Shown piece after piece: positions 4,780 to 40,318 of a stretch of DNA of 64,000 nucleotides; position 1 is the stretch's first letter; each line of letters begins with the position of its first letter. Position numbers and translations under genes: made by a program. The notes under the pieces were generated by a model, which did no database searches, was not told where the DNA came from, and saw nothing but the letters and a program-made list of their open reading frames with translations. Source of the DNA: an uncultured Chthonomonas sp. (GTDB lineage Bacteria; Armatimonadota; Chthonomonadetes; Chthonomonadales; CAJBBX01); assembly GCA_903951425.1 (NCBI GenBank), contig CAJBBX010000118.1, positions 7,702-71,701 on the forward strand, in the 5' to 3' direction.

Positions 4780-4861
4780 GGCCGCCGGCAACAGGGCCAA
4801 CCCGGTCCCTGAGGCCTGTGACGTTGTTGACGGGGTTGACCTTGTTGTCGATGGACGGCGC

Positions 4862-7483: not shown

Positions 7484-7494
7484 TTTGATCTCCT

Positions 7495-7537
7495 TTGACC
7501 TTATTGACAGTACTGACAGTATTGTCAGTGAGGTCAA
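7495..7537 (-). promoter_or_regulatory. AT-rich nested palindrome between the metallopeptidase stop and the glycosidase start (terminator/attenuator or operator)
   Basis: TTGACC(7495-7500)...GGTCAA(7532-7537) encloses ACTGACA-GTAT-TGTCAGT and the 8-bp palindrome CAGTACTG. The right arm overlaps stop codon 7534-7536. The SD and ATG of the next gene follow directly. Confidence 0.3.
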
Positions 7538-10934: not shown

Positions 10935-11048
10935 GTTTCCTCCCATTGGGCGATGCACGGGCGCAGTGCCGTGACCTCCCACACTATACTGCCCACCCGG
11001 TAGAATGCGACGCGAACCACGGGCGCCCGTAGCGACGTATGCCATTGC

Positions 11049-11660: not shown

Positions 11661-11663
11661 AGG

Positions 11664-13154: not shown

Positions 13155-13351
13155 GCCAATCCTCGCTTCACGGTTCCAGTCACTCGCTGCGCCCGGCACG
13201 CCTGTGCTCGGCGATGGCGGCGGCTACCGCCGCCTTGATGCCGGCATCGATGCGCCGGAACAGCTTGCCTCGCTCAAGATGACTCATGCGATGACCTCGG
13301 TGACACGGCGCCAGACTTCTGATAGTAGGAGCAATGCCCACTCCTGCCCCA

Positions 13352-18500: not shown

Positions 18501-18867
18501 AGTCCCACGTGCGGACCTTCCACCAGCAGGTGTCGCGCGACTGCAACGGTCGGCCCTCGTAGAGGATGTGGCAGCTATCGCGGGAGTGGACCTTGCCCGT
18601 GTCCCAGAGGTCGCCGTCGAGCCGCCCCAGTGCCGTGCGGCTTGAGGAGACGACGATCTGGTAGGCGTTCTGGCGGGCTCGCCGCCGCGTGTCGCGCACC
18701 TCCCAGGAGAGCCGGGGTTGGAGCACGTCGATGCCCAGCGGGTCCGCCAGGTACTCGCACCGTAGCCGTCCCGGCGCCTTGAGCCGCTTGTCCGCCTCGC
18801 CGTCCCGTATGGCCAATGCTGTCACCCCCTCCGGCAGGCCGCGCCCGCCGATCCGATGCCTATGCAT
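15517..18867 (-). CDS. Alpha-L-rhamnosidase (GH78) with an inserted discoidin-like domain
   Basis: Canonical GH78 N-terminus LRCEYLADPLGIDVLQPRLSWEV. Later blocks are LYEMRINGARVGDHLLAPGWTDY and a six-hairpin region ...WGEASGIWMIWSHYLTYGD. The insert ...ARYVRLTVTRLQQ...AFALAELEAL is F5/8-C-like. The start is uncertain: no SD before ATG 18867, and a TTG after GGAGGGGG about 45 nt downstream is possible. Confidence 0.85.
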   Translation of the reverse strand: MHRHRIGGRGLPEGVTALAIRDGEADKRLKAPGRLRCEYLADPLGIDVLQPRLSWEVRDTRRRARQNAYQIVVSSSRTALGRLDGDLWDTGKVHSRDSCHILYEGRPLQSRDTCWWKVRTWDSHGLPSPWSRPGFWSMGLLEPADWQADWIGNPVPPPPDSRAHNGYRCLPAPAAECERSVVVDLQAQRSIDGVRLTGARPFDIIPPDAPGYLFPTRFRIDVASEPSFEPCSTVIECTEQDVVNPGCQPWTLRFDRVEARYVRLTVTRLQQCAADGYAFALAELEALDGEENLALGALVTAQEPLEDATWSADRLTDGDIWPHPAGPAVPLPAPMFRRDFGIEGDVRRATLTASALGLYEMRINGARVGDHLLAPGWTDYDRRVQYQTFDVTDLLRPGANAIGAVAGDGWYAGRVAMAQVFRGRLRGIYGRQPRLLAQLEVEMADGSRQVIATDEGWHTTLEGPIRSSDIYDGEAFDARRSMPGWDEPGFDAAGWEPAQVDAGVNPERVAEMCQPVRARNELPAVAVTEPEPGVFVFDFGESFAGWVRLRCAGAAGAVVTVRHGQALDADGRVHFADLRGALQTDRYTLRGDAEGETLEPHFTYHGLRYTEVTGPASAPEAVGVAFGTDLPGAGMFECSDPTLNTLWQAVDRTLRSNTISVHTDCCDRDERLPWVIPDINQAEFYAADMAAFATRAAAEIRSAQLADGGFPNMAPNALKMMEAVPGWGEASGIWMIWSHYLTYGDRRLLEQHYPAARRWAERVVEVCPDYISRGFTFGDWLNGETVLMEGWEREGCAIPMEVMGTACFAHSVSIVTRIARALGEEEDAERFQDLFRRFAEAFEREFIDDEGRVQGDTQAGYAIALAFGVMPDRLRARAVAHLDAAIARSGGRLTTGNITSHLLLQELSRSERHETALRLVTGPECPSWGYMLRNGATAIWERWDGYAPERQGPAERLRWQAVHPWETHIVEGPFQDPGMNSYNHPGYILVAQWMMEAILGIAPSAEGPGFRRFTIRPRVGALRRAKGSYRSMYGIISVAWQADPNRFTLAVTVPPGSTAVAYVPCRSLNTLSEGGEPIAKSHGVKVLGEGADTVRLELAPGAYKFEAAVGRSGGVR

Positions 18868-18913
18868 CAGTATAGTGGACGATCCGGCAACAGGCGGGGC
18901 TCAGGCGCGGCAG

Positions 18914-21046: not shown

Positions 21047-21087
21047 CCTGGTGACCTCCCCTGGGGGCCGACGGCGCAACCGGCTGA

Positions 21088-23151
21088 TCAGTCCTTGAGC
21101 CGTCTCACGGCCAGGTTGCGGAACTCCACGCTGCCGCCGCGCGCGAAGAGGTAGGCCCGGCCCTGCCCGAGCGGTCTCGCCCGGCGCGAGATCATGGTGC
21201 GGCGGCCTCCGATGCAGACATCCACCAGATCATCGCGGAGGATCACTTCCAGCGTGAAGGAGCGGTCGAGGCCCGTCACGTTGCGGATGGCGAAGTCGTG
21301 CCCCTCATGCGGCGGGCGGAGCGAGTCGGGCGCCGGGCCTCCGTCGGCGGGCGTGCCGAACTGCACCGAGGCTGTGGCGGGGTCGAAGCGGATCTCGCAG
21401 TTGTTCGCCCACGCGCCGGAGCTGCCGAAGGCCAGCCCGAAGGCGGCGGCGCTGCGCGGGATCACGGTCAGCGTCAGTAGCGTCCGGGGCGCCACCTCCT
21501 CCAGCGCGGCGCAGGCCTGCCCTTCGCCCCCGCGGATCAGCAGTCCGTCGCCGTGGCGCCGCACCACGCCGGAGATCGGCGTCGGCCTGGGCCTGCGCAC
21601 GGCGCCGCACGCGGGCATCAGCTCGGGCAGGAAGCGCGTGCCGAGCGAGCCGTCGGGGCCCTGCACCAACTCGCGCAGCACCAGGTGGCCGCCCCATCCG
21701 TAGCCCGGCCCGCCCAGCCAGCCCGCCAGCAGGCATCGGCCGTCGCGGTAGGGCGCGGCCTTGGGCACGTAGAGGCCGTCGTAGAGGTCCGGCGCCAGGG
21801 ACTCCCACGGTCCGATGGCGTGGTGCGAGGTCCAGACGGCGCATCGGCCCAGGATGAAGTAGTGCCTGCCGCCCCAACTGAAGTGGTTCGGGCACTCCTC
21901 GCTCACGTCTGGGCCCGGCTCCACGAAGTCGCCGGGCACGTCGGTCCAGTGCCGCAGGTCGTCCGACTCCAGCCGGTTGCCGCCTCCGCGCACCAGGTGG
22001 AACCTGCCGGTCTCGGGGTCCTGGAAGACGTCGCAGTCGTGGCCCGGGACGATGGGGAGATGGTCCTTCTTGAAGTGGACGCCGTCGCGGCTGGTGGCGG
22101 CGTAGATCCACGCGCCTCGGGCGGGCTTGTCACGGTACTCGCACCTCGAGCCGCAGTCGGTGTAGAAGATATGCGTTACGCCCTCGTGGCGGATGATGTC
22201 GCCGGTGCCCATGGCGCACTCCCAGGGCGCGGTGAGCGGCACGGCCATGGGCTGCTCATTCCAATGCACCAGGTCGACGGTGCTGAAGTGGGCATACTGG
22301 TGAGCGCCCTGGGTCCAGCGGCTGGCGTGGTGGCGGCGATCGTAGAGCCAGAAGAGGTGAAAACGCTCGCCGTCGAAGAATGGCATGCAATCGCCGGCCG
22401 ACGTGTTGTGCCCGCGCGGCGCCCAGTACTGGCGGAAGGGCCGGTCGGGGCCCAGTATCTCGCGCCGGCGCCGGTTCGCGTTGCGCTTGCCGCCGGCAAG
22501 GCGGCAGACCTCGTCGTCGCTCAGCGCCCTCGCCCAGACCGCGACGCACTCCACACCATCGGCTGCGGCTCCGAGCCGAAGCGGAGGCAGGAGGCTGAGC
22601 AGGTCGCCGTGGGGCCACTCCTCGTCCACCAGCACGCCGTCGACCCAGAGCTGCAGGTGCGGCGAGGCGTAGCGGACCAGCAGGTCGTGACGACCCGCGC
22701 CGATGCGCTCCATGGGCGCCGAGACGCGAAGCCGCCCCTGCGCCAGGTCGCACCAGGGCTGCCCTGAGGCCGACAGGCGGCGAGCCCAGTCGGCGGCGTC
22801 GGGCTGCACGCGCTCGGCCAGCGGCGTGGTGCGGAACGTGAAGACGACGGCGTCGGGCTTGCGCTCCAGCACCGGCTCGTCTCCTTGCGAGAGGAGGGCG
22901 CCTGTGGGTCCGTCGGCGGGCAGATCCAGGCGCATGGCGAGCGTCATGGCCTGTCCGGCCAGGCGCACGTCGCCGATCGCGCCGGGCAGGGGAACGGGGC
23001 CGCCGTCCGACCGCTGTTCGAAGCCCGTCAGGCCGCGCCGCAACGCTGCGGCCATGTCGTGGCCCGCGAGGCGCCGCGTGCGGGAACCGCCGGGGTCCGG
23101 CGCGTCGGCCGGCAGGAAGAGCAGGTCGGGATTGCGTAATGGCGAGTCCAT
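21088..23151 (-). CDS. GH32-family glycosidase (beta-fructosidase/levanase-like) with N-terminal LamG/concanavalin-like domain
   Basis: Start ATG at 23151 (MDSPLRNPDLLFL). GH32 blocks: AGDCMPFFDGERFHLFWLY (nucleophile block), DVFQDP (RDP-type), SEECPNHF (EC block). The track ORF 21088..24636 extends antisense through the real SBP gene and was truncated. Confidence 0.75.
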   Translation of the reverse strand: MDSPLRNPDLLFLPADAPDPGGSRTRRLAGHDMAAALRRGLTGFEQRSDGGPVPLPGAIGDVRLAGQAMTLAMRLDLPADGPTGALLSQGDEPVLERKPDAVVFTFRTTPLAERVQPDAADWARRLSASGQPWCDLAQGRLRVSAPMERIGAGRHDLLVRYASPHLQLWVDGVLVDEEWPHGDLLSLLPPLRLGAAADGVECVAVWARALSDDEVCRLAGGKRNANRRRREILGPDRPFRQYWAPRGHNTSAGDCMPFFDGERFHLFWLYDRRHHASRWTQGAHQYAHFSTVDLVHWNEQPMAVPLTAPWECAMGTGDIIRHEGVTHIFYTDCGSRCEYRDKPARGAWIYAATSRDGVHFKKDHLPIVPGHDCDVFQDPETGRFHLVRGGGNRLESDDLRHWTDVPGDFVEPGPDVSEECPNHFSWGGRHYFILGRCAVWTSHHAIGPWESLAPDLYDGLYVPKAAPYRDGRCLLAGWLGGPGYGWGGHLVLRELVQGPDGSLGTRFLPELMPACGAVRRPRPTPISGVVRRHGDGLLIRGGEGQACAALEEVAPRTLLTLTVIPRSAAAFGLAFGSSGAWANNCEIRFDPATASVQFGTPADGGPAPDSLRPPHEGHDFAIRNVTGLDRSFTLEVILRDDLVDVCIGGRRTMISRRARPLGQGRAYLFARGGSVEFRNLAVRRLKD

Positions 23152-23217
23152 GGGCGCCCCTCGTTGAAGCGGTCTTGCCGAATGCGGCGGAACGCGTGTA
23201 CCATACCCGGTGTATCC

Positions 23218-23233
23218 TTGGCTGCGTAGCCAA
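23218..23233 (+). promoter_or_regulatory. Perfect 16-bp palindrome TTGGCT-GCGT-AGCCAA 15 nt upstream of the SBP start
   Basis: Read directly in the 96-bp divergent GH32/SBP intergenic region. A nearby direct repeat is GTGTACC...GTGTATCC. Candidate operator or 5'-UTR hairpin. Confidence 0.25.
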
Positions 23234-23247
23234 ACAGGGGGTGGGGC

Positions 23248-24573
23248 ATGAGGCCGGCATGGCGGAACGGACGATGGGCGCTGGCGGTTGCGGCCTGCGC
23301 GGCGGCGGCGTTGCTGCCCGGATGCAAGGGCGGAGGCGAGGGCAAGTCGGGCGACCAGGTGATCCACGTCACCCGCAACATCGGCGGGCGCGCGGGCTTC
23401 CAGAAGCACTGGGACGCATGGAAGGCTGCCTTCGAGAAGAAGAACCCCGGCTGGAAGCTGGAGCTCACCGACCTGGGCAACGCCGACGGCGCCGAGTACT
23501 ACAAGTCGCGCATCGCCACCGACGACCTGCCCGAGATCGTCATGACCTGGCAACTCACCAAGATGCTGGCCGATGCAGGTAAGCTGCAGCCGCTTGACGA
23601 CGCCTACTACACGCGCATCGGCCTGCCGCTTCCCACCGCCTACCAGGGCAAGCGCTACACCAGCCAGGGCGGCACGCAGATCCAGGGCATCGCCGTCAAC
23701 AAGGCCATGTGGGCCAGGGCCGGCATCACCCGCCCGCCCGCCACTTGGGACGAGCTCGTGGCCGACCTGCGCGCCATCAAGGCCAAGGGCATGCGCCCGC
23801 TCGTCTTTGGCTCCAAGGAGTGGTCGGCCAGTATGCCGCTCTGCTATGCCATCGCCACGAACCTCTTCTACGACCCGCCGAAGGCCGGGCAACGTTCCTG
23901 GACGATCCTGCGCGACCAGGGCAAGGCGAAGTTCGCCACCGACCCCACCATGCGCAAGGTGATGGAGAACGTGGTGGCCTTCGTCGGTGAGTTCGTCGAC
24001 AAGGGCGCGGGCAGCGACGGCTACAACGAGGAGCAGCGCGACTTCTACGGCGGCAAGGGCGCCACGTGGCTCATGGGCTGCTGGCTGGGCGGCGATATCG
24101 AGGCCAACAAGGTCGACTTCGACATCGAGTACTGGCCCATCCCGAGCATGACGGGCAAGGCGCCGGCCTACCTCATGACCAGCGGCATCCCGTCCGGCTG
24201 GGCCATCACCACCACCGCCAAGGGGCCGAAGCTGGCCAAGGCCCGCGACGCGCTGGAGCTCTTCTGGGACCCGCAGGTCTTCCAGCTCTTCCTCAACGGC
24301 GAGAGCCAGTTCGGCACGGCTGCTAAGGTCGCCGCCACCAAACCCCAGAGCTCCTGGGCGCCCGCGCAGAAGCTCTTCGACAACATGGACGCCAACATGC
24401 GCAAGTACCGCCTGACGCCCGGCTACCACCTGGCGCTGGACGACTTGCCGCCCATGTCGTTCGTCCAGTCGACCCAGGCCGTGGTCCAGGAAATCGTCTC
24501 CGGCACCAAGGACGTCGACAAGCTGCTGAAGATGCTCGACGACGACTGGGAGGCCGCCCGCAAGGGGATGTAG
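23248..24573 (+). CDS. ABC-transporter extracellular solute-binding lipoprotein (carbohydrate type)
   Basis: Lipobox AAALLPGC. The profile is typical of sugar family-1 SBPs (YYKSRIATDDLPEIVM, GIAVNKAMW, WDELVADLRAIKAKG, WLMGCWLGG). No permease or ATPase genes are adjacent. Confidence 0.85.
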   Translation: MRPAWRNGRWALAVAACAAAALLPGCKGGGEGKSGDQVIHVTRNIGGRAGFQKHWDAWKAAFEKKNPGWKLELTDLGNADGAEYYKSRIATDDLPEIVMTWQLTKMLADAGKLQPLDDAYYTRIGLPLPTAYQGKRYTSQGGTQIQGIAVNKAMWARAGITRPPATWDELVADLRAIKAKGMRPLVFGSKEWSASMPLCYAIATNLFYDPPKAGQRSWTILRDQGKAKFATDPTMRKVMENVVAFVGEFVDKGAGSDGYNEEQRDFYGGKGATWLMGCWLGGDIEANKVDFDIEYWPIPSMTGKAPAYLMTSGIPSGWAITTTAKGPKLAKARDALELFWDPQVFQLFLNGESQFGTAAKVAATKPQSSWAPAQKLFDNMDANMRKYRLTPGYHLALDDLPPMSFVQSTQAVVQEIVSGTKDVDKLLKMLDDDWEAARKGM

Positions 24574-25842: not shown

Positions 25843-27084
25843 TCACATCACGCCGGCATGCAGCCGGTTGAACCGGGCGATGCGGCGTGTGAGGGCCGGG
25901 TGGGTCGCGCCGCTCACGGTCAGCTCCGGCTGCCACGGGAAGTGCCAGACCCAGATCGCCGCCAGGGCGACGCTCTCCTGCTCCAGCGCGTCGATGCCGG
26001 CCACGGTCCAGGCCGCGCCGTGGTCCGCCGCAAAGCTGGGCTTCATCTGGCCGAACTCGCCGAAGAACACCGGAACCCGCGCCGCCTGGGTGGCACGGGA
26101 CAGCACCCGTACCATCTCTGTCGCGGTGAGGCCCCACAGCTTCCAGGGCTCGTCGGCCACCGGGGCGCCGTAGAAGTGGTAGCTGGCCACATCCAGCGGC
26201 TCCGGCTGCGAAGCCAGGTTGTTCGCCAGCATCTCCCGCAGCGTGTCATTGCGGTAGCGGAAGTCGGGGAACGTCTCCCGGCGGCTGGTGCATTCGGGTC
26301 GTGTGGAGGCGTCTCCGCTGGTCACCAGGTGGTTCGGGTCCAGCCCCTTGATGAAGGAGGCCTGTTCCCGGTAGATGCGCAGGATCATGTCCCAGGTCAG
26401 GCTGTCCTCGCGAACGCCCTTCTCGCGGACCTGGGCGCCCGGCGAGTAGACCGCGCGGGGAAGCAGGGCGGCGCCCGCCAGGTCCACGTCCGCCGCGAGC
26501 ATGGCCTCGTTCTCCAGTTCCCACATGAGGATGGTCGGGTCATCCCGGTAGCGGGTCACGAACTCGCGGATGTACTGGTGGGTGGCCTTGTAGGTCTTGG
26601 ATGCGGGGTCCAGGATGGCCTGCGCCGTCTCGCCGCAGTAGTGGTACCAGCCATTGACGGAGTGGAGCGAGGGGACCAGCCCGATGCGCCGCCGCCGACA
26701 CTCGGCGACCAACTGGTCCATCTGCCGCCAGTAGGCCTCCTTGTCCCTGGCGTAGATCAGGTCCGTGTCGCGGGGGTAGCCAGGGCTGGCGAAGAACCGG
26801 ACGAACGCGATGCCGCTCTTGGCGGCGTCATCTAGCGCGGCCAGCATGGCCTGCTTGGCGCGCGCCGGCGTGCCGTAGATCTGCTCGACGTGGAACCAGG
26901 TGCCGAGGTAGGCCTGGTGCAGGTGCGGGATGTTCACGCCGATGGCGCGGTAGGGCTTGCCGTCGCGGAAGAGCGCAGGGCCCTTCCGGCTGACAAAGCC
27001 CGGTCCGGCCGGCGCCGCCACCGCGGTCTGAGCCGCCGCCAACGTCAGGGTCAACCAGAAAGCCAACGCATGGCGGTTCGCCAT
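25843..27084 (-). CDS. Secreted GH5-family glycosidase (cellulase/mannanase-like)
   Basis: Signal MANRHALAFWLTLTLAAAQTAVA. (beta/alpha)8 pattern with the acid/base block ILMWELENEA. Downstream blocks are SYHFY and FFGEFG (nucleophile-type). Confidence 0.8.
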   Translation of the reverse strand: MANRHALAFWLTLTLAAAQTAVAAPAGPGFVSRKGPALFRDGKPYRAIGVNIPHLHQAYLGTWFHVEQIYGTPARAKQAMLAALDDAAKSGIAFVRFFASPGYPRDTDLIYARDKEAYWRQMDQLVAECRRRRIGLVPSLHSVNGWYHYCGETAQAILDPASKTYKATHQYIREFVTRYRDDPTILMWELENEAMLAADVDLAGAALLPRAVYSPGAQVREKGVREDSLTWDMILRIYREQASFIKGLDPNHLVTSGDASTRPECTSRRETFPDFRYRNDTLREMLANNLASQPEPLDVASYHFYGAPVADEPWKLWGLTATEMVRVLSRATQAARVPVFFGEFGQMKPSFAADHGAAWTVAGIDALEQESVALAAIWVWHFPWQPELTVSGATHPALTRRIARFNRLHAGVM

Positions 27085-27154
27085 AGCTCACGCTCCGTGC
27101 GGAAGGATTGGCCCTATCCTAGCACCGCCCGACGCACGCGGGCAAGGGCGAGCG

Positions 27155-27184
27155 CCGTGCCCTCCTCACCGCCGCTCCGGGCCC
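27155..27184. repeat. Left copy of a perfect 30-bp direct repeat CCGTGCCCTCCTCACCGCCGCTCCGGGCCC
   Basis: Identical to 32164-32193. Here it is non-coding, 70 nt from the GH5 start. It is followed by TTTTGA, which echoes GGCCCTTTGA preceding the right copy. Confidence 0.95.
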
Positions 27185-27385
27185 TTTTGAGGGCAATGGT
27201 CGGTTGAGCGATCTGGAACCAAGTGTTCATAACTGCCGCAACAGGGGATGTGCCTCCGAGTTCTACTACCGGCCGTAGGCCGAAGCAGGAATACGTACCA
27301 AGACCGGTGTACTGTGGATGTGTCGAATCTCAAGCTGCTGTTCGTCAGTTCTCGCGGGCAAGCGTTCACCCAGAAGGAGGTCGTC

Positions 27386-30300
27386 GTGTTTGGTACTGGG
27401 AGGTCTTGGCGTCGGATGGGGCCGACCACGGTGGTGCGCATCGTGGCGTCGGCCGTTCTATGTGTCGCACTCGGGGTTTTCACCGTCCCTGCTCGAGCCG
27501 ACGGCTCTGCGCGGGCTTGGGGGATGAACCAGCGCGGCCAACTTGGGGACGGTACCACGGCTGATCGGTCGACGCCGTGCCTTGTCACAGACTCCGCGGA
27601 TGTCGTGGCGGTATCGGCGGGCGACTCATTCAGCATGATGCTGCGCACAAACGGAACGGTGTGGGCGTGGGGCTAGAACCAGGTGAGTGGCGGAGGTCAG
27701 TTGGGCGACGGCACGTCGGTCGACAGGTGGACCCCGGTCAAGGTCTTGGGCCTGACCGATGTGGTCGGAATCTCGTGCGGCAACGTCCACTCCCTCGCGG
27801 TCAAGTCCGATGGCTCGGCTTGGGCGTGGGGTACGGACCAGAACGGGCGGCTGGGCGACGGAACGACCGCCACCAACAGAACCACGCCGGTTAGGGTCGT
27901 GGGCCTAACTGGGATCACCTCGGTCTCCGGCGGGTCGGGCCATAGCCTGGCGCGCAAGTCCGACGGCACTGTTTGGTCGTGGGGGCACAATCTGCACGGC
28001 CAACTCGGAGACGGGGGCACGACTGACCGAAACACCGCTGCGCAGGTACCCGGTCTGTCCGCCATTGTCGCAGTCAGCGCGGGGTACTACCACAGCCTTG
28101 CCCTGAGATCGGATGGCACCGTCTGGGCATGGGGCGACAATGCTGGGAGCCAACTCGGTGATGGGACGACACAGGAGAGGCGGACCCCGGTCCAGGTGCA
28201 AGGGCTCTCCGGCATCGTAGCCATCTCGGCCGGATGGTGGCACAGCCTGGCGCTACAGGGCGATGGCACAGTTTGGGCGTGGGGCGGCAACGAGGCAGGC
28301 GAGCTAGGCGATGGGACTATCACCCGCCGTTTCGCGCCCGTGCAGGTACAAGGGCTGGTTGCGCCGGTCGCCATCGCGGCGGGCGCCGCCCAGAGCCTCG
28401 CCGTGTTGCGCGGTGGCACGGCCATGGCGTGGGGGTCGAATAGCCACGGGGAGTTGGGCGACGGTACGACGACCGACCGCTTGATCCCGACAGCCGTGCC
28501 CGGCCTTGGAGGCGTTACCGCAATCGCGGGCGGGCTCTACCACACGGTCGCGGCAACGAATGCGCAGCCCCTCCTTAACTTCCAGACAGGCGTCGGTACC
28601 GTCGGGCAACGGGACTCTGCCCTCTGGGTCCAAGGGAACTGGATCTACGTAGCCAGCGAGGCGTGGGTGACGGCTGTCGCCCTGTCCCTCCAGCGCCCAT
28701 ACATCATCAACCAGAACGCAGCCTGGCATAGCCCGATCCCGGGCGGACACTATGTATCCCCGTCCAGCACAGGGTCGGGCGCACGGGGAGGCTACGAGTA
28801 CTTTGTGGAGTTCAACCGCCCTGTCGGGCCGGGTACTACCACTCTGGACCTCCAATGGCAAGCCGATGATGCCGCACTTCCTAATATTAACGGCATCTAT
28901 GTTCCTAACATGTACGCGAGTTATTTCAAGGCTGAACACGAAGTGCGTGATATCAGTGCTCTAGTGCAACCAGGGGTGAACCGGTTGAGCTTCTTCGTCT
29001 GCAACGTCTCAGGTCCCACGGCGCTTGACTGCAAGGTCCTGATCACGTTCCAGCCGTCTCCTACCGGCCAGATCACGGTCGAGACCACATCGGGCGCACC
29101 TGGGGCGCTTGTTCCGCTCAGAGCGACACTTACGGCCGACGGCCAGCCGCAGACCGGTAAGACCGTTGCGTTCACCGTTGGCGGGCAGGTGATGGGCTCT
29201 GATCAGACCGATCTGACCGGCAAGGCGACGCTCGAGATTGGCGTCCCGGACACACTGGGTGCGGGCGATGTCGAGGTACGTGCCGCCTTCGCGGGTGATG
29301 CCGGGTGCGGCGCGACGACCGGTACGGGCGCGCTTACGATCCTGAAGGGTGATACGAGGCCCTACGTGGTCGTGCGCTCGGGTCTGATCACGGACTCGGT
29401 GCGCCTGAAGGCCTGGCTGAAGCGCCTGACCGACAACGCATGGCTGGTCGGACGCACGGTGGAGTTCGCGATCGACGGCGCTGCGGTCGGCACGGGCACG
29501 GTCGGCGCCGATGGAATGGCCTACCTGGACTGGATTATCACGGCCGGGCCGTCGGAGCGGACCATCACGGCTAGCTACGCGGGCGAGGCAGTGTACAACC
29601 CGTCAACCGGCTCTGCACCACTCCTGGCGCTGACCACCAACACGAAGCTGTACGTTCCGGACAGGACGGCAGCGATCTACGACTACACGGTCCTCAAGGC
29701 GTGGCTGTACAAGAACCCCGGTAACGTGCCGATAGGCGGCAAGCCCCTGGCGTTCACGGTTGGCGGCACCGACCTCGGCAAGGCCACGACGATCAGCACC
29801 GGGCAGGCGCAGATCTACTACACCATTCCCGTGGCATCTGGAGCCGGTACTCGGCCCATCTACGTTACATGGTCCGGCGACGCAGGCTATATGCCAAGCG
29901 CGTCTTCGGCCGTTCTGAACGCTCTGTACGCCCGAACCTACCTCTGGACCGGCGACCGCACGCCGCTCCGTGGAGAGGCGATCTTTGTCAAGGCGCTACT
30001 TCGGTGCCTGCCCAGCTACGCCCCCGTGATGGGTCTGCCGGTGAGCTTCCAGATTGATGGCACCGGCATTGGGTCGGCGCCGACGGCTGTGACCGGGTGG
30101 GCCGGGGTCAACTGGACGGTGCCGGAATCGATGACCGGTACGCACCAGATCAAGGCGGACGCGCCGGGCGATGCGACCTTCGCACCGGCTTCGGCCACGG
30201 CGACCCTGACGCCGAAGGCAATGGTGCCGACCTATCTATGGACAGGCGACCGCACGCTTCGGCCCGGGCAGGTCCTCACCATCGTTTCACTGCTCCGGCG

Positions 30301-31009
30301 AACCTCCGACTACGCGCCGCTGTCTGGCCGAACAGTGGATGCCGCGATCGACGGGACCAGTGTCGGCTCCGGGGTGACCGCAGTCGATGGTTGGTCACAG
30401 GTCAGTTGGACGATGCCCGTGAACATGACGGGCCAGCATGTGATCAAGGTCAGTTACGCGGGTGAAACGCTGTACCAGCCGTCTACGGGCACAGCCAAGC
30501 TGGCGCCGTATCCGGACATCGTCGTGAACGGGAGCTTCGAGTTCGGCGTGAACCCGCCCAATATCGACGGTAGGTCTCTCAGTGCAGGCTCCACGGACCT
30601 GGCGGGCTGGAGTATCGTCAAGGAGCAGATTGACTGGCTGGGACCCACGCGCTGGATTGCATCGGATGGGAGCCGGTGCCTTGATATGAACGGGACGCCA
30701 GGGGTCGGCGCCATTCAGCAGGTTCTGCCCACAGTCGCCGGGCAGGACTACGTGCTCAAGTTCGACCTCGCGGCCGAACCCGACCTTGGCCCGCGCACAT
30801 CTTGGATCCGGGTTCAGGTAGGCAGCCTCACGCACGACTTCTCGGCCGTCACCACGTCAAGCAACACGCCATCGAACATGGGATGGACGACACAGACGCT
30901 GACGTTTCGGGCCACCGCGTCAACGACTGCTCTGACGTTCACGAGCTTGGACACGACCTTCACAGACACGGGTCCGAACCTCGACAACGTTCGCGTCAAC
31001 GCGTACTAG
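27386..31009 (+). pseudogene. Giant secreted RCC1 7-bladed propeller / 5x Ig-like repeat / choice-of-anchor-C (DUF642)-like protein, interrupted by one in-frame TAG (27674-27676)
   Basis: AAGGAGG lies 6 nt before GTG 27386. Signal ...VVRIVASAVLCVALGVFTVPARA. Seven WxWGxNxxGQLGDGT blades occur, with blade 1 upstream and blades 2-7 downstream of the TAG in the same frame (track ORFs 27248..27676 and 27683..31009). The C-terminus IVVNGSFE...GW...IDWLG...DMNG...GPNLDNVRV is choice-of-anchor-C-like. Confidence 0.7.
29066..30505 (+). repeat. Five tandem ~96-aa (about 290-nt) Ig-like coding repeats inside the RCC1 gene
   Basis: The units each contain ...V.F.(V/I)(G/D)G..(V/L/I)G...T...G.A...(W/Y/I)..P...G.......(Y/F/W)(A/S)GD(A/E)... 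The last two units begin ...TYLWTGDRT... Confidence 0.75.
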
Positions 31010-31044
31010 GCCTTAGCATCACTGGCGTGGCGTAGCTCGGCTCT

Positions 31045-31073
31045 GGCGCATGGCGATCCTGCCGCCATGCGCC
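31045..31073. terminator. Bidirectional hairpin between the RCC1 gene and the convergent three-ORF cassette
   Basis: GGCGCATGGCG-ATCCTGC-CGCCATGCGCC forms a perfect 11-bp stem. Confidence 0.45.
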
Positions 31074-31154
31074 GGGCAGAGCACGGCTAACAGGCTACAC
31101 GCCGGGCCGCTTCAGTACGATCGACGCGTGCGCCGCGAACAGGTCTGCGTATTC

Positions 31155-31523
31155 CTAAAGGATCGCGAACCTGTCCCGGCGGCCACTGGGAGCCAGGACC
31201 TCAGAGTGCCCGGTGGCGCGGTCGACTCGTCCGGAGCACCGGAGGCCGTGTTGCTCGAAGCCGTCGAGGTTGATCGCTGCCATGCGGTAACCGGCGGAAA
31301 GCAGCGTCTCGGCAGTGGCCTCCGGCGTCGGGGGATCGCGTCGGCTGTTGATCGTATGCTGCAGGGCGCCGCGGGCGGACCCGCAAACGTCGCACCGGTA
31401 GAGCGAGGGTCCCCTCTCGTTCAGCCCGCTGCGCAGGACGAACGCGGCCTGCAGGTCGAGGTCGCTCACGCGCGTAGCGATGACACAGAATGCGAGTCGA
31501 TTCGCCGTTGCATGGCGTTCCAC
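31155..31523 (-). CDS. Hypothetical protein (island ORF c, ~122 aa)
   Basis: GTG at 31523 is preceded by GGAGG at 5-nt spacing, 12 nt after the ORF b stop. Third-position G+C is about 80% by hand count. It contains ...LAFCVIATRVSDLDLQ...YRCDVCGS... I recognise no family. The track ORF starts at TTG 31562. Confidence 0.45.
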   Translation of the reverse strand: MERHATANRLAFCVIATRVSDLDLQAAFVLRSGLNERGPSLYRCDVCGSARGALQHTINSRRDPPTPEATAETLLSAGYRMAAINLDGFEQHGLRCSGRVDRATGHSEVLAPSGRRDRFAIL

Positions 31524-31539
31524 GACTACCTCCGGCGGA

Positions 31540-31866
31540 TCAGACTGGGACGGCCTGAGCAAGCCAGCGGACGACCCGGACTACTGCGTCCCGCAGGGGC
31601 AGACGGTCACGACTCAGCCGAGCGCCGGATAGCCCCTGCAGAACCGTGTACGCTCCCTCGTCGTCCCCGTCGACGATGATCGTGAGTACCGTCCGGCTGT
31701 TACGCCAGGTCAAGAACAGGCGCCCATCGGGGTCCGCACTGACGGTGGCATCCTGCCACGGCGACGAGCCGGAACATGTCACGGCCCAAGCAGTGCCAAC
31801 CACCGTCATGGCGCAAGTGTCCGTGCCGCTTGTCGCGTCGCCCGCCTGGTCCATCGGATCGACCAT
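31540..31866 (-). CDS. Hypothetical protein (island ORF b, ~108-120 aa)
   Basis: High third-position G+C. Possible starts are ATG 31866 (TGATG overlap with the ORF a stop), ATG 31884 (MDRLRV...) or the track's TTG 31902. It contains ...ADPDGRLFLTWRNSRTVLTIIVDGDDEGAYTVL... No family recognised. Confidence 0.4.
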   Translation of the reverse strand: MVDPMDQAGDATSGTDTCAMTVVGTAWAVTCSGSSPWQDATVSADPDGRLFLTWRNSRTVLTIIVDGDDEGAYTVLQGLSGARLSRDRLPLRDAVVRVVRWLAQAVPV

Positions 31867-31982
31867 CACGCGGAGACGGTCCATGGCGTGTGCCAGCCGC
31901 AACAGGACCTCGGCATCGCCTCTACCGCCGCCTGACCGGCGCGGCTCGGCTTCAATGAAGACTGAACGGCTGTCTGCGTCAT
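31866..31982 (-). CDS. Possible 38-aa leader ORF (island ORF a)
   Basis: ATG at 31982 is preceded by GAGGAG at 8-nt spacing. Sequence MTQTAVQSSLKPSRAGQAAVEAMPRSCCGWHTPWTVSA. The stop overlaps a downstream ATG (TGATG). It is below the 60-aa track threshold and very tentative. Confidence 0.2.
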   Translation of the reverse strand: MTQTAVQSSLKPSRAGQAAVEAMPRSCCGWHTPWTVSA

Positions 31983-32163
31983 CGCGTGGTCTCCTCGCCG
32001 GATCGGCGGGGTGGTCTGCGCGCCATTCAATTCACTGCGGCGCCCTGCTTGCTCAAGCCCGCTCCGCGGGGCGCAACAACCCGCCGTCCTCAGGCTAACC
32101 CACTATGCGTCAGGTGTGCACGCATCGGCCACGTCCATACAGCCCGCCCGCCAGGCCCTTTGA

Positions 32164-32193
32164 CCGTGCCCTCCTCACCGCCGCTCCGGGCCC
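32164..32193. repeat. Right copy of the perfect 30-bp direct repeat
   Basis: Covers the last six codons (GPERR + stop at 32175-32177) and 11 nt of 3' flank of the 1104-aa gene. Identical to 27155-27184. Confidence 0.95.
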
Positions 32194-35100
32194 CGCCTCG
32201 CCGCCCGCACTCGAGCCTCCTGACTGGGGAAGGCGTCCTGCATGTACTCGCGCTTTACCACCGGGGCCGTGGCCATGCGCGGGAGGATGGGCCACCGGTC
32301 CGCCTCGAACGGGGCCGGGTCCGGGTCGGCCATGGCGCGTATCTCCGGCTCGCCGCGATAGGGGCAGAGCAGGTCGATCCAGGCGGTGAGCTTCTGCAGC
32401 GACACCGGGTCCAGCGCCACTCCGTGGTGCTTGCCGCCCATTACGAGGGCCACCAGCGGGCTCCGGTAGGAGAGCGTGGTCATGGGCGCCACGGTCTTCA
32501 GCATCGCGTCGCGGGGCATGGCGGCGGGGATCAGGCTACCGGCGATGCCCGCCGCGCCCACGGGCGGCCAGTCGAACCCGGTGGGATTGGCCAGTCTGCC
32601 CAAGACGAGCGTGACGTAGGGCTCCTTGAAGACGCCGGCGCCGGGGCGCAGCGTCAGATCGTACGCGGCCCGAGCGGAACCCGAGCCCTGGTGGCAGGAG
32701 CCGCAATGGCGGTCCAGGATCGGCTGGATGTCCCTCTCGTAGCCCAGCGTGTAGCCGGCGCCCCACGGCGGCGGGTCGATGGCCCGGGGGCGCCTGGCCA
32801 TGGCGGCGGGAGTGGCGGCCTGCGGCGCGGAGCTGTGCATCTCGTGGCAACCGACGCATCCCCGCCGCTCGCCGGGCATGACGTTGGCGAACGAGCGCAT
32901 GGTCTGGATGGCCAGCCCCCGCTCGTCGAGCAGTTGGAAGTGGAGGGCCCGGCCGGGCGGCGCGTTGAAGCAGACCGAACCATCGGCCTCGATGGGCACC
33001 GTGCCGAGGATGCGCTTGATGCCGTCGACCACCGTCACCGACAGCGGCGGACCGCCCAGCATGATGGGCTGGGTCACGGTGTCGCCCGGCTGCTGCGATT
33101 TGCGCCCCAGGGTGAAGGTGGACGAGTCCTGCTGGATGACCCGCAGGTACCGGGCCGCGCCGCGCGGCACATTCGGCAGCCCGGCGTAGACGTCGGCGCT
33201 GAAGACGACGCCGGGAGCCACGGGCCGCCCCTCCGCCTCGGCGCCGGGCCATGCCACCCGGTCGGGGATGGCCGGCGGCCTGCGCCGCGCGCGGAGCGGC
33301 ATGGCGTGAAGGATGTTGTACGCGCCCTCAGTGATCAGCTCGCGGTTGCCCTCGACGTCCATCAGGTAGAGGCCGAAGTGGGGTGCGTCGCTCCGCCGGG
33401 CCGAGACCAGGAAGAGCGACGGGCTGAGCGGATAGGGCGACCGATAGGCCGCGAACCGGCCCGACGCATGGTAGCCCGCGCGCTCCGGCCGCTCGCCGGG
33501 ACCATCGCCCACCTCGGCCCAGGGCACATCGGGCGTCACTTTGGTCAGGCCCGCCGGGTAGTTGAGCCCGACGGCGCGGTCCACGATCCCTATGCTCCCG
33601 CTGAAGACGTCGTGGTGGCCCACGCCGGCGAACATGACGCGCCGGCTCCCGGGGATCGACCTCGCCTCGAAGAGCATGTCCGGCCAGAAGCTCTGGTTGC
33701 CCCAGTAGGCGCTGACGGCCGTGCCGTCCGGGTTGGCGGTCCAGAGGCTCTGCACCCGGATTTGCTCCTTGTCCGTGTACTCCCAGCGCGTGTAGAGCAG
33801 CCGCCCGTCCGGCAGCACGGTGGGGGTGTAGTCCGGCTCGTTGTTGGCGCTGATCAGATAGATGCCGCGGCCGTTCGCATCGCACTTCGCCAGCACGGTG
33901 CTCTCGATGTAGGGCCCGCAGCGGACGAAGCTGTTGGCCCGCGTGGTGCAGAACCGGATGGAGCCGTCCGGGGCGTAGACGGGGCTGATGTCGTCGTACT
34001 GGCCGGAGGTGAGCTGCCGTAGCCCCGCGCCATCGGAGCCGACCTCGTAGAGATGGTACGTCTTGTCGGCGTGGGGCTTGAAGCAGAAGAGGACCCGCCG
34101 CCCGTCGAAGGAGACATCCGGCCGGCCGAGCGCGCCGGCGCCGGGCATGAGCCGCGTGAGCCTTCCGCCTGGGTGGAGCCCATCCAGCGTGAGGAGGCGC
34201 CCCCCGCTGGATGCCCGCTTGCCCAGATGGTGGAGCGCCTCGTGGGGCCATTCACCGCCCTGCGGGTAGGGAGTGTCCACCAGCAGCAGGCGGCTGAAGT
34301 CGACGGCCGGATCGCGCAGCAGGATGCGCCGCTTGACCTGCCGAATCGCCAGGTAGAGGTCCCGTGCGGCGGCTCCGTCCGGCGGACCGGCGAACCGGCG
34401 CACGCGTTGCGCGAGGCGGTTCAGTTCGGCCACGTCGGCCGCGAGCCCCGGCCGGGCGCCGGCGGAGGCGATGCGCGCCGCCACCTTGCGCGCCCAGCCG
34501 ATCTCGTCGCTCGCCCGCCTGAGTAGCGGCGCGCCCTGGGCCTGGTAGAGCCAGTCGCGCCGGAGCGCCTCGGTAGCCTCGGTGGGCGTGAGGGTCCGCG
34601 TCTCCGGCGTGGCGTCCTCCGCCGTCATGGCGATACGCTCATCCGGCTGGACCGAAGCCGCCGCGCCGCTCGCAAGGGCGATGCCGTACTTCGCCGCCAG
34701 GTAGCCCCGAACCTGCGCGCACTCCTCGGCGCTGAGGGCCTCGTTGTAGATCAGCAACTCGGCGATGTCGCCTGTGAGGAACTCCGTGGGGACCCCCGCC
34801 TGCGGGCACGCGCCGATGAAGAGGGGCAGGCCGTTGGCAAGGATGCCCGCCGAGGCCGCGACGCCCCTGCCCGGCGCGCCGTTCAGGCCCTGCGTGATAC
34901 GGCGTCCGTCGAGGCGCAGTTCCACGATGGAGAGGCGCTCCAGGCCTCCGCTGTGCTGCAGTTGGGCCCCTCGCGTTGTGCCATCGCGCTCCAGGCCCAG
35001 GTGGGTCCATGGGTGCAGGCCATCGCGATTGACGGCGATCCCGTAGCCGCTCCAGGGCGGCCCCCAGCTGTTCCTGCTGGAGAGCCACATGTTGTTGGGG

Positions 35101-35489
35101 CCCGCATCGGCTCGCGCCACAACGAAGGCCGTGAGGCGCCGTGTCGTCAGCGATGCGCCTGAGCCGGCCGAGAGGTACTGCCCGTGGGCCGCATCGAACC
35201 GTACAGTGCGCAGTCCGGTGGCGGCGTCAACGCGCACCGCCGGCCTGCGCTCAACGTCCGGCTGAGAGGCGTGGTTGCCATGGCCGCTCTTGTCGGCCCA
35301 GACCGACTGCCCCGCATCGCCGGGGTCCTGGGCATCGAGCCAGAGGACCAGGCGCGGACCGGTGACTGGCCCGGCGGCAGGCGATGGCTTCGGGGCTGCC
35401 AGTGCATACAGCGCCAGCAGGCCGGCAGACACGCAGGCGGCCACGCCGGTAATGCATCGTCTCCGAGTTGGTCTGTGGGCGCTCATCAT
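32175..35489 (-). CDS. Secreted LamG-domain / PD40-type beta-propeller protein with C-terminal double CxxCH module (planctomycete cytochrome-c-like)
   Basis: N-terminal signal/anchor ITGVAACVSAGLLALYALA. LamG block GDIAELLIYNEALSAEECAQVRGYLAAKYG. Propeller blocks YHLYEVGSDGAGLRQLTSG and YAPDGSIRFCTTR. CxxCH motifs: CVGCH (about 32843-32860) and CGSCH (about 32689-32709). Paralogous to 40606..44658. Confidence 0.75.
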   Translation of the reverse strand: MMSAHRPTRRRCITGVAACVSAGLLALYALAAPKPSPAAGPVTGPRLVLWLDAQDPGDAGQSVWADKSGHGNHASQPDVERRPAVRVDAATGLRTVRFDAAHGQYLSAGSGASLTTRRLTAFVVARADAGPNNMWLSSRNSWGPPWSGYGIAVNRDGLHPWTHLGLERDGTTRGAQLQHSGGLERLSIVELRLDGRRITQGLNGAPGRGVAASAGILANGLPLFIGACPQAGVPTEFLTGDIAELLIYNEALSAEECAQVRGYLAAKYGIALASGAAASVQPDERIAMTAEDATPETRTLTPTEATEALRRDWLYQAQGAPLLRRASDEIGWARKVAARIASAGARPGLAADVAELNRLAQRVRRFAGPPDGAAARDLYLAIRQVKRRILLRDPAVDFSRLLLVDTPYPQGGEWPHEALHHLGKRASSGGRLLTLDGLHPGGRLTRLMPGAGALGRPDVSFDGRRVLFCFKPHADKTYHLYEVGSDGAGLRQLTSGQYDDISPVYAPDGSIRFCTTRANSFVRCGPYIESTVLAKCDANGRGIYLISANNEPDYTPTVLPDGRLLYTRWEYTDKEQIRVQSLWTANPDGTAVSAYWGNQSFWPDMLFEARSIPGSRRVMFAGVGHHDVFSGSIGIVDRAVGLNYPAGLTKVTPDVPWAEVGDGPGERPERAGYHASGRFAAYRSPYPLSPSLFLVSARRSDAPHFGLYLMDVEGNRELITEGAYNILHAMPLRARRRPPAIPDRVAWPGAEAEGRPVAPGVVFSADVYAGLPNVPRGAARYLRVIQQDSSTFTLGRKSQQPGDTVTQPIMLGGPPLSVTVVDGIKRILGTVPIEADGSVCFNAPPGRALHFQLLDERGLAIQTMRSFANVMPGERRGCVGCHEMHSSAPQAATPAAMARRPRAIDPPPWGAGYTLGYERDIQPILDRHCGSCHQGSGSARAAYDLTLRPGAGVFKEPYVTLVLGRLANPTGFDWPPVGAAGIAGSLIPAAMPRDAMLKTVAPMTTLSYRSPLVALVMGGKHHGVALDPVSLQKLTAWIDLLCPYRGEPEIRAMADPDPAPFEADRWPILPRMATAPVVKREYMQDAFPSQEARVRAARRGPERR

Positions 35490-36565
35490 GGGCTGTGGTT
35501 CCCGTTCTCACTACTCAATGGGTCGTGGTTGCAGAGCCCGATGAGTCCATACTGACACAGACGGCGGTCGGGCGCGGCATTCGCCCATCCACACCTGGAT
35601 GTAGCGAGGCTTGCGCAGAAGGGGCGGTGCGATGGCCCATCCTCAACGAGACGCGTTCTGCATTCCGGTGGCGCGGTGAGACGCGGGGAACTGAGCCCCG
35701 GTCTGCTGCGCAGGATCGTTGAGCGGCTGGGTCTGTCGGGGGCGCCGGGGGTCGACCACGAGGGCCTTCGGGCGCTCTATGCGGGCTGGTGCCTGAACGT
35801 TCCGTTCGACAATGTGCGGAAGTTCATCGCGCTGCGCACACCGGACGCTGAGTTGCCCGGCCGAGACGCCGGCGAGTTCTTCGAGCAGTGGCTTGAGCAC
35901 GGCGCCGGCGGCACATGCTGGGCGACCAGCAACGCCCTCTCTTCGCTGGCCGGCGCGCTCGGCTTCAGCGCGAGGCGGGTGGCCGGTTCCATGCGGGACA
36001 CGGGTGTCCTGAGCCACGGCACCGTCAAGGTTCGGACCGAAGGGCGCGACTGGCTGGTCGATACGTCCATGCTCTGGGGCATACCGGTCCCACTGGGCGA
36101 TCAGGCTACGCTGCACTCTGAGGGCGCCTTTGTGGTGGAGGTGGAGCCGGCGGCGGACTCGCATCTATTCTGGTCGGGCATGCGGCCCGGCACGGCTGAT
36201 CTGCCCTGCCGCCTTCTGGTGGACCCGGCAGACGATACGCTGTACGATGCGCGGCATGAGGCATCGCGACTGCGAAGCCCCTTCAACAACCGTCTCTACG
36301 CGCACCGGAACCGGCCGGCGGAGGTGGTGATCCTGAACGGGCACACACGCACAAGCCACACAGCCGATGGGCAGAGGTCCCACGAACTCACGGGCGACGA
36401 AGTGTGCCGGGCCCTGCACGAGGATATCGGCATCTCCGAGGCGCTGATCCGGCAATGGGTCAGGTGCGGCGGTCTCGATGCCGCCTTTGAGGGGCCTAAG
36501 TGCGCGCCCATGCCCGAGATCGCGCAAAAGCCGCCGTCGCAACGCGAGTGCAAGGACGCCCTCTC

Positions 36566-40318
<3,753 letters not shown>

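Follow-up and report, generated by a model that had tools for sequence, protein, structure and literature searches.

The 64-kb stretch of uncultured Armatimonadota DNA analyzed here (the window) contains two 30-bp direct repeats about 5 kb apart, one of which lies across the stop codon of an HzsA-related gene. This arrangement raises the question of whether the interval between the repeats is a later arrival in the genome and, if so, by what mechanism it entered. The host belongs to a near-clonal freshwater population of Chthonomonas-like Armatimonadota. The features of the locus are collected in Table 1.

Table 1. Features of the insert and its flanking genes (positions in the window)
Feature	Position	Strand	Evidence
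GH5 glycoside hydrolase, 413 aa, downstream neighbor at the empty site	25843..27084	-	Pfam Cellulase
Left 30-bp direct repeat, attL-like junction, GH5-proximal, noncoding	27155..27184	.	Exact match
Motif GGCCCTTTTGA, left repeat end plus first 6 nt of the insert	27180..27190	+	1 occurrence in window, 0.07 expected
4,979-bp insert, missing from sister species, foreign composition	27185..32163	+	Empty sites, GC, tetranucleotide, GC3
Secreted RCC1-repeat/Big_3_5/DUF642 (choice-of-anchor C) protein gene, pseudogene	27386..31009	+	Translation, Pfam
Orphan ORF o135 (135 aa; gene finder: 122 aa at 31155..31523)	31095..31562	-	Coding-like GC by codon position
Orphan ORF o120, immediately upstream of o135, 23-nt overlap	31540..31902	-	Coding-like GC pattern
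Small ORF of doubtful status, 54 aa (38 aa if started at an internal ATG behind GGAGA)	31866..32030	-	ORF list only
Motif GGCCCTTTGA, final 10 nt of the insert	32154..32163	+	1 occurrence in window, 0.08 expected
Right 30-bp direct repeat, attR-like junction	32164..32193	.	Exact match
Target gene, 1104-aa HzsA-related beta-propeller/CxxCH protein, 3' end in the right repeat	32175..35489	-	Pfam HZS_alpha, PD40

Direct repeats and a short motif mark the insert ends

The repeated sequence, CCGTGCCCTCCTCACCGCCGCTCCGGGCCC (plus strand), occurs in two directly oriented copies that are identical at all 30 positions, and their flanks diverge directly beyond the repeat edges. The left copy begins 70 nt upstream of the GH5 ATG. 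The right copy comprises 16 coding nucleotides of the HzsA-related gene (five codons and 1 nt), the TGA at 32175-32177, and 11 nt of 3' flank. No further copy exists in the window at up to three mismatches (0 matches in 100 shuffles), and half-sites of the 30-mer occur there at chance level while the full 30-mer is confined to the two sites, so the repeat is not a dispersed one within the window. Searches of genome_contigs, metagenome_contigs, and viral_contigs returned no match to it.

The insert starts and finishes with TTT(T)GA, and the GGCCC that precedes TTTGA at the right end is identical to the 5 nt with which the repeat ends at the left junction. The motifs GGCCCTTTTGA and GGCCCTTTGA each occur once, where about 0.07 to 0.08 occurrences would be expected. 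Together with the bases before it, GGCCCTTTGA makes up an incomplete, degenerate version of the repeat's 3' part; the local similarity of the right insert end to the repeat plus junction has a P value of ~0.01. GGCCCTTT(T)GA is confined to the two ends of the insert, and joining them into a circle would therefore place the motif on both sides of the core. The original prediction, made from the sequence of the window, had described perfect repeats, their placement relative to the two genes, and a short motif at both ends, and it is upheld on each of these points.

The site is uninterrupted in sister species

The site is uninterrupted in two sister species of Armatimonadota, with DNA identities of about 94% and 90%: the MAG LacPavin_0920_WC57_MAG_69_10 (L019) and the uncultured Chthonomonas sp. 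LaPlata-b_bin-0775 (L018). The alignment with L019 covers window positions 35502-32173 and then passes straight to 27184-25836, while that with L018 covers 35465-32173 and then 27183-17189; the breakpoints or overlap fall inside the 30-mer in both cases. The gap between the stop codon and GH5 is 81 nt in L019 and 80 nt in L018. This is exactly the junction that had been forecast on removal of the interval and one repeat copy, namely, the stop codon, about 80 nt, and the GH5 start. A single diverged copy of the 30-mer is present at the uninterrupted site in L019 (26/30) and L018. GH5 also follows the gene after ~80 nt in at least six of seven further contigs of the L018-type species (three of them represented by DNA sequence); it directly follows the gene in L082-L083, again with a single repeat copy. 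The surrounding synteny is intact in the sister species, orthologs of the HzsA-related gene share 95% (L019) and 90% (L018) amino acid identity, and the window and L019 are 100% identical over the 70 nt upstream of GH5.

The 5-kb block is an insertion relative to these two species, bounded on either side by a 30-bp copy of host sequence. Of the four repeat positions that differ in L019, the window agrees with L018 at three, either by base or through the post-stop GGGCAC string (offset by an indel); the repeat is the host lineage's own, fast-evolving post-stop sequence. The insertion point harms neither gene, as the stop codon is kept and the GH5 upstream region is preserved. Integrative elements aimed at the 3' ends of genes typically spare the genes in this way.

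The insert is foreign in composition and its genes are decaying

The composition of the insert is foreign to the host. Its GC content is 0.6505, compared with a mean of 0.701 (sd 0.0135, minimum 0.668) across all other 4,979-bp windows (z = -3.75), and its tetranucleotide distance from the rest of the window (z = +7.9) exceeds the maximum of 99 control windows. GC3 is likewise lower, at 0.72 to 0.80 (about 0.78) in the insert genes versus 0.87 to 0.94 (mean 0.88) in host genes. These values bear out the earlier impression that the interval is AT-richer than its surroundings.

The RCC1 gene has a GTG start after AGGAGG and is a pseudogene because an in-frame TAG (27674-27676) interrupts its reading frame, with Pfam matches on either side. 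The TAG is fixed, being found in every strain locus that covers the position, and L002-type strains carry an extra 1-bp deletion at 30139. No close homolog of the gene was found, the best full-length match being 35% identical.

Outside the RCC1 gene, the insert amounts to just 1.15 kb, with two orphan ORFs. A premature TAG at 31155-31157 truncates o135, and homology to its sole homolog, P0091 (77% identical), goes on past this stop: the read-through frame EYADLFAAHASIVLKR aligns with EHADVFAAHATITLKR of P0091. Searches with o135 gave no family, defense-system, or PDB match, and its AlphaFold2 (AF2) model has a pLDDT of 39. A weak CxxC...H zinc-finger-like stretch is present in the protein. The neighboring o120 has one remote homolog, P0098 (42% identical over 67 aa), and the contig of P0091 carries a partial gene in the position matching o120. 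The AF2 model of o120 is a beta-meander with a C-terminal helix (pLDDT 59) and has no significant fold match in the PDB. The doubtful small ORF sits in the 260 bp adjoining the right repeat and had no matches in the Pfam, PHROGs, NCBIfam, and PADLOC searches of the insert ORFs. The nonsense mutations in the RCC1 gene and o135 indicate that the insert genes are decaying.

No recombinase or recognizable core sites accompany the insert

Profile searches of the insert ORFs (Pfam, PHROGs, NCBIfam, and PADLOC) detected no recombinase, integrase, relaxase, or transposase, in agreement with the original prediction that none is visible inside. No recombinase gene was found in any large ORF of the 64-kb window, which also contains no tRNA or tmRNA. 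Neither another copy of the element nor a circular junction nor a related element at a different site was found in the contig sets searched. The insert has no terminal inverted repeats, its inverted-repeat alignment score equaling the shuffle mean, which argues against a DDE (cut-and-paste) transposon. The best 11-6/8-11 dyad in the repeat matches at 6/11 (P = 0.25), though natural cores can be weakly symmetric, and the dyad symmetry of the reconstructed attP and attB is no better than that of shuffles. The 30-mer, attP, and attB thus have no recognizable core-type binding sites.

Several known classes of element were considered and rejected: a tyrosine-recombinase genomic island with its own integrase (no integrase gene in the insert), an IMEX or Xer-exploiting element (no dif-like dyad and a site that overlaps a coding 3' end), a DDE transposon or insertion sequence (no terminal inverted repeats, no transposase, and a 30-bp duplication), a casposon (no Cas1 casposase, family B polymerase, or terminal inverted repeats), and a prophage or phage satellite (no significant PHROG match and no relatives in viral_contigs or phage records).

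A relic of site-specific integration is the favored explanation

We favor, with a probability of roughly 0.6, the reading that the insert is a small horizontally acquired islet left by Campbell-type site-specific integration and comparable to a CIME. The islet lies between the HzsA-related stop codon and the GH5 upstream region and comprises 4,979 bp plus the 30-bp duplication. It would have entered as a circular molecule whose attP contained these 30 bp between direct repeats of GGCCCTTT(T)GA. Recombination would have taken place at a chromosomal attB overlapping the gene's stop codon, where integration spares both neighboring genes. The recombinase may either have been lost through internal deletion or always have been provided in trans; both routes would yield a CIME-like relic that keeps attL and attR and is missing the integration genes. 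The islet is probably no longer mobile on its own.

Random insertion would not readily account for the presence of GGCCCTTT(T)GA at both ends. The original prediction had offered three origins, of which a decayed island or an element mobilized in trans is favored by the two nonsense-bearing genes; integration encoded by the small ORFs finds no such backing, as the HMM and structure searches proposed for them revealed no recombinase signature or fold. Against site-specific integration stand the lack of a recombinase, of a dyad core, of a second copy, and of polymorphism. All insert-carrying strains are 99.96 to 99.99% identical to one another, and there is consequently no within-population presence/absence polymorphism to show mobility. 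A repeat that matches the host's own post-stop sequence would also fit a target-site duplication just as well, without needing an attP match.

Such a duplication is an unlikely alternative. It would require a trans-acting enzyme (casposase/Cas1-like or another, unknown integrase) to make 30-nt staggered cuts, gap repair of which would duplicate the host 30 bp around an element with the ends TTTTGA...TTTGA. Both copies are indeed native host sequence, including the lineage-specific post-stop bases, and the shared TTT(T)GA ends and the lack of a recombinase or core-type symmetry suit this reading. Casposons and other long-duplication elements similarly produce a long direct host duplication at a gene 3' end. 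However, the islet has no Cas1, PolB, transposase, or terminal inverted repeats, its 30 bp exceed the 14 to 15 bp usual for casposons, and the GGCCC at the right end that matches the last 5 nt of the repeat must be ascribed to coincidence or target preference. To our knowledge, the target duplications of known bacterial transposons are all shorter than 30 bp.

Similarly improbable is an insertion that needed no recombinase and never involved a dedicated mobile element. Circular or concatemeric DNA with ~30 bp of host-derived sequence could have entered through one RecA-type crossover or through illegitimate recombination at the GGCCC microhomology. An aberrant excision at an earlier time is one possible source of the host-derived 30 bp. 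Homologous recombination has a minimal length close to 30 bp, no recombinase, symmetry, or second copy was found, and the GGCCCTTT(T)GA ends could represent the terminal redundancy of a slightly over-unit molecule (spacing, ~4,974 bp). Yet this route needs an unexplained prior capture of exactly this host segment, and it leaves unexplained why the insert landed, without damage, precisely after a stop codon and ahead of the following gene's upstream region.

We regard it as very unlikely that the islet remains mobile and represents a new type of minimal integrative element, in which the o120/o135 pair or an unrecognized host factor binding the GGCCCTTT(T)GA repeats would recombine the 30-bp core with no known recombinase family. 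The nonsense mutations and the lack of other copies make this so; were it true, it would be important. It is likewise very unlikely that the block is ancestral and that the L019 and L018 lineages each lost it separately through recombination of the two 30-bp repeats. Such a deletion would account exactly for the single copy seen, but two independent precise losses would be required, the composition is strongly nonhost with no drift toward the host, the single copies of the relatives have diverged normally amid intact nearby synteny, and close relatives of the cargo are absent from this lineage.

The insert structure does not stem from misassembly. In de Bruijn graphs built with k = 31, k-1 is the length of the exact 30-bp repeat, and an assembler might have threaded a separate 5-kb circle sharing that repeat into the chromosome, but this is barely credible, because the same two junctions occur in at least 18 contigs from different samples and from independent MEGAHIT (final k, 141) and metaSPAdes assemblies, in which a 30-bp overlap is unable to join contigs. 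Strain differences also affect each repeat copy separately: a SNP at 27156 reduces the left repeat to 29/30 in L003, and in variant P0233 the TGA of the right repeat is TGG and the gene reads 24 codons into the insert.

Relation to known elements and significance

CIMEs are elements that have lost integration and transfer genes and kept attL and attR (PMC5704250). Like the CIMEs and decayed elements at streptococcal ICE/IME sites, the islet has attL/attR-type direct repeats that include a target gene 3' end, no integration or transfer genes of its own, decaying cargo, and a degenerate third partial repeat adjoining one end, as after element accretion (PMC5704250). Removal of the element would restore a single site, as seen in L019, L018, and L082-L083. 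Unlike these CIMEs, it targets a protein-coding gene of an uncultured Armatimonadota and is just 5 kb long with orphan genes; no cognate ICE, IME, or integrase is known to have this specificity, and the contig sets searched yielded no related element.

Tyrosine-recombinase islands at the 3' ends of tRNA, tmRNA, or protein genes, such as the ssrA islands of Dehalococcoides, similarly duplicate the gene end into which they integrate, have atypical composition, and have relatives with an empty site, whereas the islet has no integrase beside an att site, no tRNA or tmRNA, and no dyad-symmetric core (PMC3146451). IMEX elements (CTXphi, TLCphi, and the Legionellales dif elements), which use host XerCD at dif, likewise encode no recombinase and are bracketed by repeats of ~28 to 30 bp (PMC5357621, PMC9765430). 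In contrast to theirs, the islet repeat is GC-rich, has no two-arm dif dyad, and overlaps a stop codon instead of dif.

Most probably, the islet is what remains of a small integrative element in decay, an already well-known kind. With both the filled and the empty sites known, it could help calibrate integrase-reliant island finders, which miss islets without an integrase. For an uncultured freshwater lineage of Armatimonadota, it provides a clean case of recent gene gain resolved to the base pair, and it marks an integration site at the HzsA-related gene's 3' end in a phylum whose mobile elements are almost unstudied.

Foreign DNA inserted recently and precisely

Between the target gene and its GH5 neighbor, foreign DNA has been inserted recently and with precision: the 4,979-bp block is flanked by a duplicated 30-bp stretch of host sequence, its genes are decaying, and it encodes no recombinase. 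By Pfam, the 1104-aa target protein is related to HzsA, with HZS_alpha, PD40, and a CxxCH motif, and the gene downstream encodes a GH5 cellulase-family enzyme. The original prediction had bracketed the block with 30-bp direct repeats, and the two copies of CCGTGCCCTCCTCACCGCCGCTCCGGGCCC are identical at 30/30 positions, with the locations and anatomy it described (see the table). A third copy is absent from the whole window at up to three mismatches, and a shuffled sequence likewise gave no match. Exact scans of genome_contigs, metagenome_contigs, and viral_contigs also returned no match to the 30-mer, and a relaxed 25-mer covering the variants of the window and of L019, a sister species, had 0 matches in metagenome_contigs.

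The GC content of the insert is 0.6505, compared to a mean of 0.701 (sd 0.0135, minimum 0.668) for all other 4,979-bp windows (z = -3.75), and its tetranucleotide distance is 0.304 versus a mean of 0.132 and a maximum of 0.182 elsewhere in the window (z = +7.9). GC3 ranges from 0.72 to 0.80 in the insert ORFs and from ~0.87 to 0.94 in most host genes (mean 0.88). The insert is thus foreign DNA that has not drifted toward host composition. The insert and all large ORFs of the window lack an integrase, transposase, or relaxase. The window contains neither a tRNA nor a tmRNA, Rfam families are absent from the region, and plasmid, phage, and viral-contig collections contain nothing similar to the insert.

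Features of the insertion locus and blastn alignments to the sister species
Feature	Window position	Strand	Position in relative	Description
GH5 gene	25843-27084	-		downstream neighbor
Promoter-like TTGCCC-18 nt-TAGGAT	27116-27145	-		weak sigma-70-type appearance
Left 30-mer copy	27155-27184	+		non-coding; 70 nt upstream of the GH5 ATG
Insert	27185-32163			4,979 bp
RCC1/Big_3_5/DUF642 gene	27386-31009			1,207 codons; GTG start at 27386 after AGGAGG
o135	31155-31562	-		orphan ORF; coding-like GC pattern
o120	31540-31902	-		orphan ORF; coding-like GC pattern
Right 30-mer copy	32164-32193	+		last 16 coding nt, TGA (32175-32177), and 11 nt of 3' flank of the target gene
Target gene	32175-35489	-		HZS_alpha paralogue
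Lineage-specific segment	~35600-36565			~1 kb, directly upstream of the target gene
327-aa ORF	35676-36659	+		weak Acetyltransf_2 match; GC3 0.80
Second HZS_alpha paralogue	40645-44658			HzsA-related
L019 block 1	35502-32173		9988-13317	94.4% identity
L019 block 2	27184-25836		13297-14645	94.7% identity
L018 block 1	35465-32173		2739-6023	89% identity
L018 block 2	27183-17189		6004-15998	90.5% identity

Sister species carry the empty site

Two close relatives emerged from a protein-guided scan of species-representative genomes, Armatimonadota MAG LacPavin_0920_WC57_MAG_69_10 (L019) and uncultured Chthonomonas sp. LaPlata-b_bin-0775 (L018), with target orthologues of 95% and 90% amino acid identity, respectively. 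Both have the predicted empty site, in which the target gene stop is followed by about 80 nt and the GH5 start: a 413-aa GH5 ORF directly follows the orthologue after a gap of 81 nt in L019 and 80 nt in L018. Seven further contigs are listed for the L018-type species, and GH5 lies ~80 nt after the target gene in 6/6 of those shown. The two blastn blocks of each relative overlap within the repeat, placing the breakpoints inside the 30-mer, of which each relative possesses one diverged copy (26/30 in L019). At three of the four L019 differences, the window agrees with L018, either in the base or in the post-stop GGGCAC string (indel-offset), indicating that the duplicated 30 bp are the host lineage's own sequence. 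From the repeat to the GH5 start, the window and L019 match at 100% over 70 nt, and the insertion therefore occupies a slot that harms neither gene. Target-gene relatives with 63-70% identity (P0002-P0004) share no synteny, making the site uninformative in them.

The genes of the insert are decaying

The RCC1 gene encodes a secreted protein that combines an RCC1 propeller with five Big_3_5 domains and carries a DUF642/choice-of-anchor C domain at its C-terminus (Pfam). An in-frame TAG at 27674-27676 interrupts it within an RCC1 blade, and because this TAG is fixed in every strain locus covering the position, the gene is a pseudogene, or at best expressed minus its signal peptide. Decay has gone further in the L002-type strains (L002, L006, and L015), where an extra 1-bp deletion at window position 30139, with a nearby SNP, divides the gene into 835-aa and 198-aa calls. 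No homologue of the protein exceeded 35% identity at full length, and the genomic context of the 35% homologue is unrelated.

The 1.15 kb of the insert outside the RCC1 gene holds the minus-strand ORFs o120 and o135 and a doubtful 54-aa ORF. The sole homologue of o135 among 5.8 billion proteins is P0091 (77% identical), whose gene follows a partial gene in the position of o120 on a 737-bp contig of GCA_041442895.1. The TAG of o135 (31155-31157, minus strand) is a sense codon in P0091, 19 more homologous codons lie beyond it, and the o135 frame past the TAG, EYADLFAAHASIVLKR, aligns with EHADVFAAHATITLKR of P0091. Since homology persists beyond the TAG, o135 also carries a nonsense mutation, the second in the insert. 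Recoding of the two in-frame TAGs was rejected because both genes themselves end naturally at a TAG, coinciding with the end of the DUF642 profile for the RCC1 gene and of P0091 for o135. o120 has a single remote relative. Neither the small ORFs nor the insert had a meaningful match in Pfam, PHROGs, NCBIfam, PADLOC, PDB sequences, Rfam, or plasmid or phage records. The AlphaFold2 model of o135 is unusable (pLDDT 39), and that of o120 (pLDDT 59) shows a modest beta-meander and a helix; its best matches among PDB folds are FABP-like beta-barrels (E = 0.3, TM ~0.28), which are uninformative and unlike recombinase folds.

Insert ends and the mode of integration

The empty site in L019 and L018 and the foreign composition support the predicted site-specific integration. 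We consider it probable, at roughly 0.6, that a circular foreign element entered by Campbell-style, site-specific recombination with an attB that overlaps the stop codon of the target gene, and that its recombinase was later lost or was supplied in trans throughout. The circle junction would read ...CCCGCCAGGCCCTTTGA + 30-mer + TTTTGAGGGCAATGG..., and a restored empty site would read ...GGGCAAGGGCGAGCG + 30-mer + CGCCTCGCCGCCC....

Within the 64 kb, GGCCCTTTTGA and GGCCCTTTGA are each found a single time (~0.07-0.08 expected); one lies across the boundary of left repeat and insert, the other makes up the final 10 nt of the insert, and the motif common to both ends is GGCCCTTT(T)GA. Together with the bases ahead of it, the right-hand motif makes a degenerate version of the repeat's 3' part (P ~0.01). 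A circularized element would read GGCCCTTTGA-[25 nt]-GGCCCTTTTGA, and these direct repeats around the core suggest putative protein-binding sites, or the trace of an earlier integration or accretion; purely random insertion is unlikely to have produced the arrangement. A terminal-inverted-repeat model was rejected, as the insert ends carry no such repeats, and so was a dif-like site, since neither the 30-bp repeat nor the reconstructed attP and attB have dyad symmetry beyond chance level.

An enzyme cutting with a 30-nt stagger could have left the repeat as a target-site duplication, consistent with its host origin and asymmetric core, but the inverted repeats are lacking, no such enzyme was found, and GGCCC is common to both ends, and we regard this route as unlikely. 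We give an equally low rating to recombinase-independent insertion, whether homologous or microhomology-mediated. A minimal integration system of a new type, either specified by the orphan ORFs or reliant on a host factor recognizing the GGCCCTTT(T)GA repeats, appears quite improbable. An ancestral block precisely lost twice in the relatives is contradicted by the composition and is slightly less plausible still.

Exact-protein look-ups recovered the locus from at least 18 contigs of numerous ENA lake metagenomes, put together with MEGAHIT (k141) and metaSPAdes; gene order is unchanged in all of them, and all show both junctions. The strain loci are 99.96-99.99% identical to the window, indicating a nearly clonal population. 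Samples with this population include SAMEA6872939, SAMEA6872936, SAMEA6872902, and the runs underlying ERZ27313478, and the lineage is also represented in ERZ1426771, an assembly with a 316,820-bp contig. An assembly artefact is excluded, as a 30-bp repeat is unable to join contigs at these k-mer sizes, both junctions recur across the assemblies of both programs from many samples, and single strains carry private SNPs in one repeat copy only (27156 in L003; the stop codon lost in the right copy of P0233, a target protein variant).

Site-specific integration remains our preferred reading, and the insert behaves like the decayed, integrase-less islands of ICE/IME biology. It loosely resembles the recombinase-less IMEX elements (PMC5357621, PMC9765430) but fails the dif-site test. 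The features tested speak against a transposon, a casposon, and a prophage, and, with just two copies of the 30-mer in the 64-kb window, the repeat is probably not a REP element either.

The surrounding locus

A second lineage-specific segment adjoins the target gene; its 327-aa ORF overlaps the end of a histidine-kinase gene, and in place of the segment L019 and L018 show no more than a ~75-100-nt spacer. Downstream of GH5, the window and L018 both continue with ADH, SBP, and GH32 genes, whereas L019 loses synteny with both over 14646-23312 at host-like GC, which points to another rearrangement at the locus. The two HZS_alpha paralogues lie within 10 kb of each other amid polysaccharide degradation genes (GH5, GH32, GH39, rhamnosidase, and GH123), and the HzsA-related family is widespread in MAGs of Planctomycetota, Verrucomicrobiota, and Armatimonadota.

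In the P0233 variant, seen in one assembly, the target gene TGA in the right repeat is TGG, giving an 1128-aa protein that runs on for 24 residues into the insert. Upstream of GH5, the fully conserved 70 nt contain the promoter-like TTGCCC-18 nt-TAGGAT, which matches at 8 of 12 positions, below the threshold of a promoter scan that reported none. If this promoter is real, GH5 would retain its own promoter in spite of the insertion.
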